From: a virus
Lineage: Duplodnaviria > Heunggongvirae > Uroviricota > Caudoviricetes
IMG/VR virus record: IMGVR_UViG_2698536618_000007
Length of the DNA stretch: 6,207 nucleotides
Reading direction: 5' to 3' (one strand)
In this document: piece by piece, positions 1-497 of the stretch
Position numbering within the stretch: the stretch's first letter is position 1
How the letters are laid out: every line of letters starts with the position of its first letter
Notes under the pieces: generated by a model
Told to the model about the DNA's origin: nothing
Seen by the model: the letters and a program-made list of their open reading frames with translations, nothing else
Databases searched by the model: none
Position numbers and translations under genes: made by a program

Positions 1-86
1 CTGGAAAGGCTGGGCCATACTCCTCCGGCAGAAGCAGAAAAAGCTTATTATGCTTCCATCGGAAACGATGATCTGGCAGCCTGAGT

Positions 87-497
87 TCACAGATAAAATA
101 CTCTCCAGGAAACCCGGGGCGGTTCAGAGTCAATATTATAGACTGTATTGTCGCAAAGAGTTATAACATCAATACCGTGATTCAAAATCAATTTCAGACG
201 TTCAATCGCTTCACCGACTTTTTCTCTTGAAAGTCTGTCCAGACTTTCAACTAACAATGTAGTTCCTGGCAATATATAACCATGCTCTATAGCATCTAAA
301 AATTCCGAAAAAGCTCCTGATTGTGCATGCTTTCCTTTGAATGCACTTAATCCTAAATCTTCATATGTTATGGTATCAAGATAATAATCACTATTTACCT
401 TTAACCATTCAGCAATAAGTCTTCTCTGTCGGTTTAATGAGTCACCAGACATCTGACCTGGTGATGAAAATCGCATATATGCTATGGCTTTTTTCAT
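87..497 (-). CDS. ybcK: Serine recombinase (resolvase/invertase-type catalytic domain), YbcK-like; only 136 aa before a stop, so possibly truncated or frameshifted
   Basis: N-terminus MKKAIAYMRFSSPGQ carries the catalytic Ser motif of serine recombinases. Position directly downstream of emrE matches my recollection of the DLP12 order emrE-ybcK. RBS-like AGGTG sits 6 nt upstream of the ATG at 497. The ORF ends at 87-89 (TGA), although K-12 YbcK is, as I recall, about 500 aa; the other two minus-strand frames stay open to the window edge. Confidence 0.6.
   Translation of the reverse strand: MKKAIAYMRFSSPGQMSGDSLNRQRRLIAEWLKVNSDYYLDTITYEDLGLSAFKGKHAQSGAFSEFLDAIEHGYILPGTTLLVESLDRLSREKVGEAIERLKLILNHGIDVITLCDNTVYNIDSEPPRVSWRVFYL

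Follow-up and report, generated by a model that had tools for sequence, protein, structure and literature searches.

Gene content of the window

The DNA analysed here (the window, 6207 nt) corresponds, in reverse complement, to the whole of contig CYGF01000077.1 (6207 bp) from draft assembly GCA_001285485.1. It represents the early region of a mosaic lambdoid prophage, and its features are listed in Table 1. From left to right it carries, on the minus strand, a 5′ fragment of ybcK, ylcJ, emrE, ren, a lambda P-like and a lambda O-like gene, and YdaT-like and YdaS-like genes; on the plus strand these are followed by an S24 repressor gene, kilR, gam and a recT-like gene, inside which the right end of the contig breaks. 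The mosaicism is evident from a Rac/YdaS-YdaT immunity region occurring together with O/P replication genes of lambda type and a kilR-gam-recT arm that resembles Rac.

Table 1. Positions of features in the window, from left to right.
Feature	Position	Strand	Remarks
Right-hand 126 nt of an IS3-family element, IS629/IS1203 type	1..126	+	Cut by the contig start
Transposase end (orfB part), last 27 codons and TGA	1..84	+	Translation LERLGHTPPAEAEKAYYASIGNDDLAA, then stop
IS right terminal inverted repeat, TTCACAGATAAAATACTCTCCAGGAAACCCGGGGCGGTTCA	86..126	+	Same as the 41-nt right arm in a complete copy
Chimeric ORF, 136 codons	87..497	-	124 YbcK residues, 12 residues read from the IS (EPPRVSWRVFYL) and TGA
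GAG, first three target bases beyond the IS terminus	127..129		Presumably the right of the two copies in a 3-bp target-site duplication
ybcK 5′ fragment, codons 1-124 of 508 (large serine recombinase)	127..497	-	100% nucleotide identity
ylcJ, small gene upstream of ybcK	555..704	-	ylcJ annotation in matching genomes; Pfam PF23688
emrE, multidrug efflux gene, 110 codons from ATG at 1084	752-1084	-	Mechanical ORF extends to TTG at 1138
Lambda O-like replication gene	2149-3168	-	
Immunity region, Rac/YdaS-YdaT type	3165-4003	-	PF15943, PF06254
S24-type repressor, 251 aa, HTH and S24 peptidase	4042-4797	+	Faces the YdaS-YdaT genes
kilR	5393-5599	+	

The placement of emrE and ylcJ between ren and ybcK is an arrangement shared with DLP12-type prophages and with several sequenced temperate phages. 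Inside the lambda O-like gene lies an iteron-like array (2615-2708) of about four palindromic repeats of 19-24 nt with the consensus TTTACCTSATTCRGGTAAAC, visible in the O-like protein as PESGKK/LPKSGK motifs; by analogy with lambda, the array is presumably the replication origin of the prophage. Some 600 bp between the S24 repressor gene and kilR (4798-5392) hold no called gene, and a terminator-like GC hairpin followed by a T-run (ccggtcaccgtgccgggttttctttt) is found at about 4918-4945. An Rfam scan of the whole window returned no family at threshold.

The ybcK fragment and its end

The leftmost of the prophage genes appears in the mechanical ORF list as a minus-strand reading frame whose product begins MKKAIAYMRFSSPGQ... 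and whose stop codon, TGA, is read as tca at 87-89 on the plus strand. The initial annotation had credited this ORF with an intact serine recombinase N-terminus, and both the ORF list and Pfam confirm it. The Resolvase domain (PF00239) is matched over residues 4-122 (E = 1.1e-16), corresponding to positions 1-103 of the 145 in the profile; the N-terminus is whole, and the catalytic domain is shortened at its end. The motif of the nucleophilic serine, YMRFSSPGQ, is kept, and from the general motif Y-x-R-x-S-[ST]-x-x-Q we take Ser11 to be the nucleophile. In intact YbcK, Pfam delimits Resolvase at 4-161, Recombinase (PF07508) at 191-284 and the zinc ribbon Zn_ribbon_recom (PF13408) at 302-357; neither PF07508 nor PF13408 was found by Pfam in the 136-residue ORF. 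The product thus lacks the last quarter of the catalytic domain as well as the whole of the Recombinase and zinc-ribbon domains.

The gene had been likened to the YbcK-type large serine recombinases, and it turns out to be ybcK itself, identical at every position of codons 1-124. In a BLASTP comparison with intact YbcK (WP_000709082.1, 508 aa), identity extends to residue 124 (...NTVYNIDS); past this point the intact protein reads LNEP..., whereas the ORF in the window reads EPPRVSWRVFYL and stops. The earlier suspicion that the ORF is a truncated pseudogene is therefore borne out, as identity to ybcK ends at codon 124 and the C-terminal domains are absent.

The same boundary is found in the DNA. 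When window 1-700 was compared by megablast with 5426 complete Escherichia coli genomes, positions 126-700 proved 100% identical to ybcK and ylcJ in many strains, and none of the ybcK/ylcJ matches in these genomes extended to the left of 126. Base-by-base extension against the intact ybcK locus of strain 2452 gave unbroken identity over 126-823; the first differing base is 125. Judging from the ylcJ context, the native 5′ region of ybcK is undisturbed.

A short, conserved gene encoding only a resolvase domain was considered and rejected. The exact 136-residue protein is present on two contigs only, the contig of the window and a metagenome scaffold described below, and 12 of its residues are encoded by an insertion sequence. 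Of the 5426 complete E. coli genomes, 1424 carry ybcK, and the gene is of full length (95-100% identity) in 1398 of these (98%), so that the short form is not a conserved gene.

An IS3-family terminus joined to ybcK

The DNA on the other side of the boundary is the right end of an insertion sequence. Window 1-126 matches, at 126 of 126 positions, the final 126 nt of a full 1310-bp IS in E. coli 23CRST038 (NZ_AP045810.1; 1817-3126 of the extracted locus, L003), and is identical at 124 of 126 positions to the annotated IS1203 of strain CEC96047 (locus L001). The complete copies at these two loci differ from one another at 45 of 1310 positions. On the evidence of this terminal sequence the element is assigned to the IS629/IS1203 isoform group, 126 nt being too few for us to have chosen among isoforms. 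With the IS629/IS1203/IS3411 group it shares the terminal 126 nt, the TG...CA ends, the 41-nt repeats and the C-terminus of the transposase. It is a common sequence: 24 447 matches to window 1-130, at loci annotated 'IS3 family transposase', are spread over 4059 of the 5426 complete E. coli genomes, with 3 as the median and 49 as the maximum number per genome.

The end of the transposase gene can be recognized from these comparisons. Position 84 of the window corresponds to position 4084 of the CEC96047 locus L001, where the coding sequence of the 'IS3-like element IS1203 family transposase' ends, and window 1-84 corresponds likewise to the final part of the 23CRST038 'IS3 family transposase', which matches NCBIfam NF033516 (transpos_IS3) with E = 5e-94. 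Elements of the group measure about 1.3 kb and have two overlapping ORFs that a programmed -1 frameshift joins; complete copies of the IS elsewhere are 1310 bp long and have a two-part transposase annotated with 'programmed frameshift'. The initial annotation had set an unrelated downstream gene against its reading of the ORF, and such a gene is present within the window itself in the form of this transposase end.

The right terminal repeat of the IS ends ...GGTTCA at position 126, which is the canonical ...CA terminus. A repeat search of the 23CRST038 copy found imperfect inverted repeats with 41-nt arms, 78% complementary and 1228 nt apart; the left arm reads TGAACCGCCCCGGGAATCC..., and the termini read TGAACCGCCCCGGG... 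with TG...CA ends. Base 126 (A) suits both the IS terminus and ybcK, leaving an ambiguity of one base in the junction. The chimeric ORF departs from YbcK in its last 12 residues and TGA because the right inverted repeat of the IS supplies them, the TGA lying 37-39 nt inside the IS.

The 23CRST038 copy is flanked by a GAG duplication, and GAG is also the triplet next to the IS in the window; chance or a mild preference for this target could account for the agreement. That strain matches the window over 130 of 130 positions, and we considered whether it carries the same allele; this was rejected, as the match is to a separate IS copy next to which GAGT happens to come.

The truncation had been attributed initially to a frameshift near 87-130, with a possible homopolymer error in a GGGGCGG run, in what would otherwise be a continuous ybcK. 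Two features of the DNA speak for such a frameshift or sequencing error. Both other minus-strand frames are indeed free of stops through positions 1-90, as had been claimed, and there is a G/C-rich run at 113-122. Their openness has a simple cause: the stretch consists of the complement of a genuine coding sequence and of the IS end. The GGGGCGG run exists, one base from the position given to it (116-122 rather than 115-121), but it belongs to the terminal inverted repeat TGAACCGCCCCGGG of the IS and is identical in thousands of copies, so a homopolymer error is not borne out. After a frameshift, homology to ybcK would resume in another frame, and it does not: nucleotide identity to ybcK halts at 126/127 with no offset resumption, the IS end lies beyond, and the intact gene is unrelated to window 1-125. 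When the alternative frames of window 1-130 were compared with YbcK, as the initial annotation had proposed, one gave no BLASTP alignment and the other an alignment with E = 6.2, and neither resembled residues 125-508. A frameshift or sequencing error here is virtually inconceivable.

We also considered whether the IS end had been misjoined to ybcK during assembly, the real genome having an intact gene. The window comes from a short-read draft contig that ends in a multi-copy repeat, which is where misjoins occur; indeed, collapse of such a repeat, at which short-read draft contigs break, explains why only 126 nt of the IS are left at the contig end. Nevertheless, misassembly is extremely unlikely, because the join lies precisely at the canonical end of the IS, ...GGTTCA, which is what transposition would produce and a random misjoin would not. 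In addition, an independent metagenome assembly contains the identical 136-residue ORF and the same junction, on a scaffold (L005; ENA ERZ28620522) that ends 54 nt into the IS. The lengths of IS retained, 126 nt in the window and 54 nt in the scaffold, each then followed by G, would fit de Bruijn assembly with k = 127 and k = 55 respectively.

Origin of the junction and its occurrence in E. coli

We are confident that ybcK has been cut at codon 124/125 by an IS629/IS1203-type element and that a frameshift is not the cause. In the arrangement that we propose, a 1310-bp IS3-family element would sit between ybcK codons 124 and 125, its transposase gene and the 5′ fragment of ybcK being convergent. 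Ribosomes that begin at the unaltered ybcK start codon would read 124 native codons, enter the IS right repeat and there add 12 unrelated residues before reaching the TGA. The element probably arrived by ordinary IS3-type transposition, generating a 3-bp duplication of GAG, and the 3′ part of ybcK presumably lies on its far side. The contig includes neither the left IS junction nor the other 384 codons of ybcK (125-508); a simple insertion predicts that the left junction would read ...CATTCAAAGAG and then TGAACCGCCCCGGGAATCC, the left end of the IS, with ybcK codons 125-508 outside the element. In the orientation of the window, the IS left end TGAACCGCCCCGGGAATCCTGGAG... would come after ...GGCTCATTCAAAGAG together with the reverse complement of ybcK codons 125-508.

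In large serine recombinases, the parts that are missing here hold the long helix of the dimer/tetramer interface and all the DNA-binding domains. Because these are absent, we infer that the remnant protein would be inactive, with neither DNA binding nor synapsis.

The junction could be real and yet not reflect insertion alone, if an IS-mediated deletion, inversion or recombination had since removed or moved the 3′ part of ybcK and possibly also ybcL, ybcM and the nin region. We think this unlikely, but it has some support. Only 21 of 47 IS629 sites in O157:H7 have matching duplications on both sides, which indicates that many copies have been rearranged (PMC3271280), and the left side of the IS is here out of view, since the contig begins within the element. 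No direct evidence counters such a rearrangement. We nevertheless favour simple insertion fairly clearly over IS-mediated rearrangement, because the ybcK fragment and the DNA upstream of it are still 100% identical to intact alleles, suggesting a recent event, and because a comparable insertion in CEC96047 is simple.

That comparator (NZ_AP026104.1; IS at 2817-4126 of locus L001) has ybcK hit by an element of the same IS group, whose orientation relative to the gene is as in the window, and RefSeq annotates two partial 'recombinase family protein' pseudogenes around its IS1203. Both halves of ybcK are present there, the IS is flanked by a 3-bp duplication, and the 3′ half of the gene is also frameshifted. 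The CEC96047 insertion is independent of the one in the window: it lies at codon 213, its duplication is ATT, and its IS differs at 2 of the 126 shared bases. Among the few other copies of ybcK that are not of full length, one in another strain (NZ_CP068680.1) is interrupted by IS1.

The ybcK of the window corresponds to that of the DLP12-type lambdoid prophage of E. coli K-12, with which it is identical or nearly so in codons 1-124 and in the ylcJ-emrE-ren context; the intact DLP12-type gene has 508 codons encoding three domains, whereas in the window only the first 124 codons are left attached to the promoter. Intact ybcK homologues are also found in sequenced 44-50-kb temperate Escherichia phages (e.g. 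OV696612.1, Escherichia phage Perceval), and one such phage record annotates the homologue as 'Large serine recombinase'. A literature search found no paper pairing ybcK with 'serine recombinase', and the papers found on ybcK or DLP12 treat matters other than what YbcK does; the role of YbcK as a second recombinase in lambdoid phages appears to be uncharacterized.

Two further readings can be named. The 136-residue stub, a catalytic domain with an IS-encoded tail, might still be expressed and keep some activity, perhaps by disturbing how subunits of related serine recombinases in the cell assemble; or the IS might mark a rearrangement, mediated by the element, in which the prophage lost its late half and so became locked in place. 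The intact promoter region and start codon are what can be cited for them, and we regard both as very improbable.

IS629, together with its isoforms IS1203 and IS3411, ranks with the most frequent insertion sequences of pathogenic E. coli and Shigella. Of the IS629 copies in O157:H7, 62% are located in prophages or prophage-like elements, and the duplication made at the target site measures 3-4 bp (PMC3271280). A prophage gene, the target here, is thus a usual location for IS629. The ybcK codon 124/125 site, of which the window shows the right end only, is unmatched among the insertions of this group in the 5426 complete E. coli genomes; megablast found no junction-spanning record in these genomes or in phage records, and exact-junction scans of GTDB species-representative genomes, JGI metagenome contigs and IMG/VR contigs were negative. 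The insertion site was seen only in GCA_001285485.1, whose contig is recorded for two samples, and in one metagenome, and it could for this reason be of use as a lineage marker.

Annotators should describe the ORF as an IS-interrupted ybcK (partial, C-terminus missing); neither 'frameshifted gene' nor 'small resolvase' is an apt label. The biological weight of the interruption is small: it is ordinary prophage gene decay in E. coli of a kind already known, insertion of IS629-type elements into prophage genes being a documented route of decay and strain diversification.
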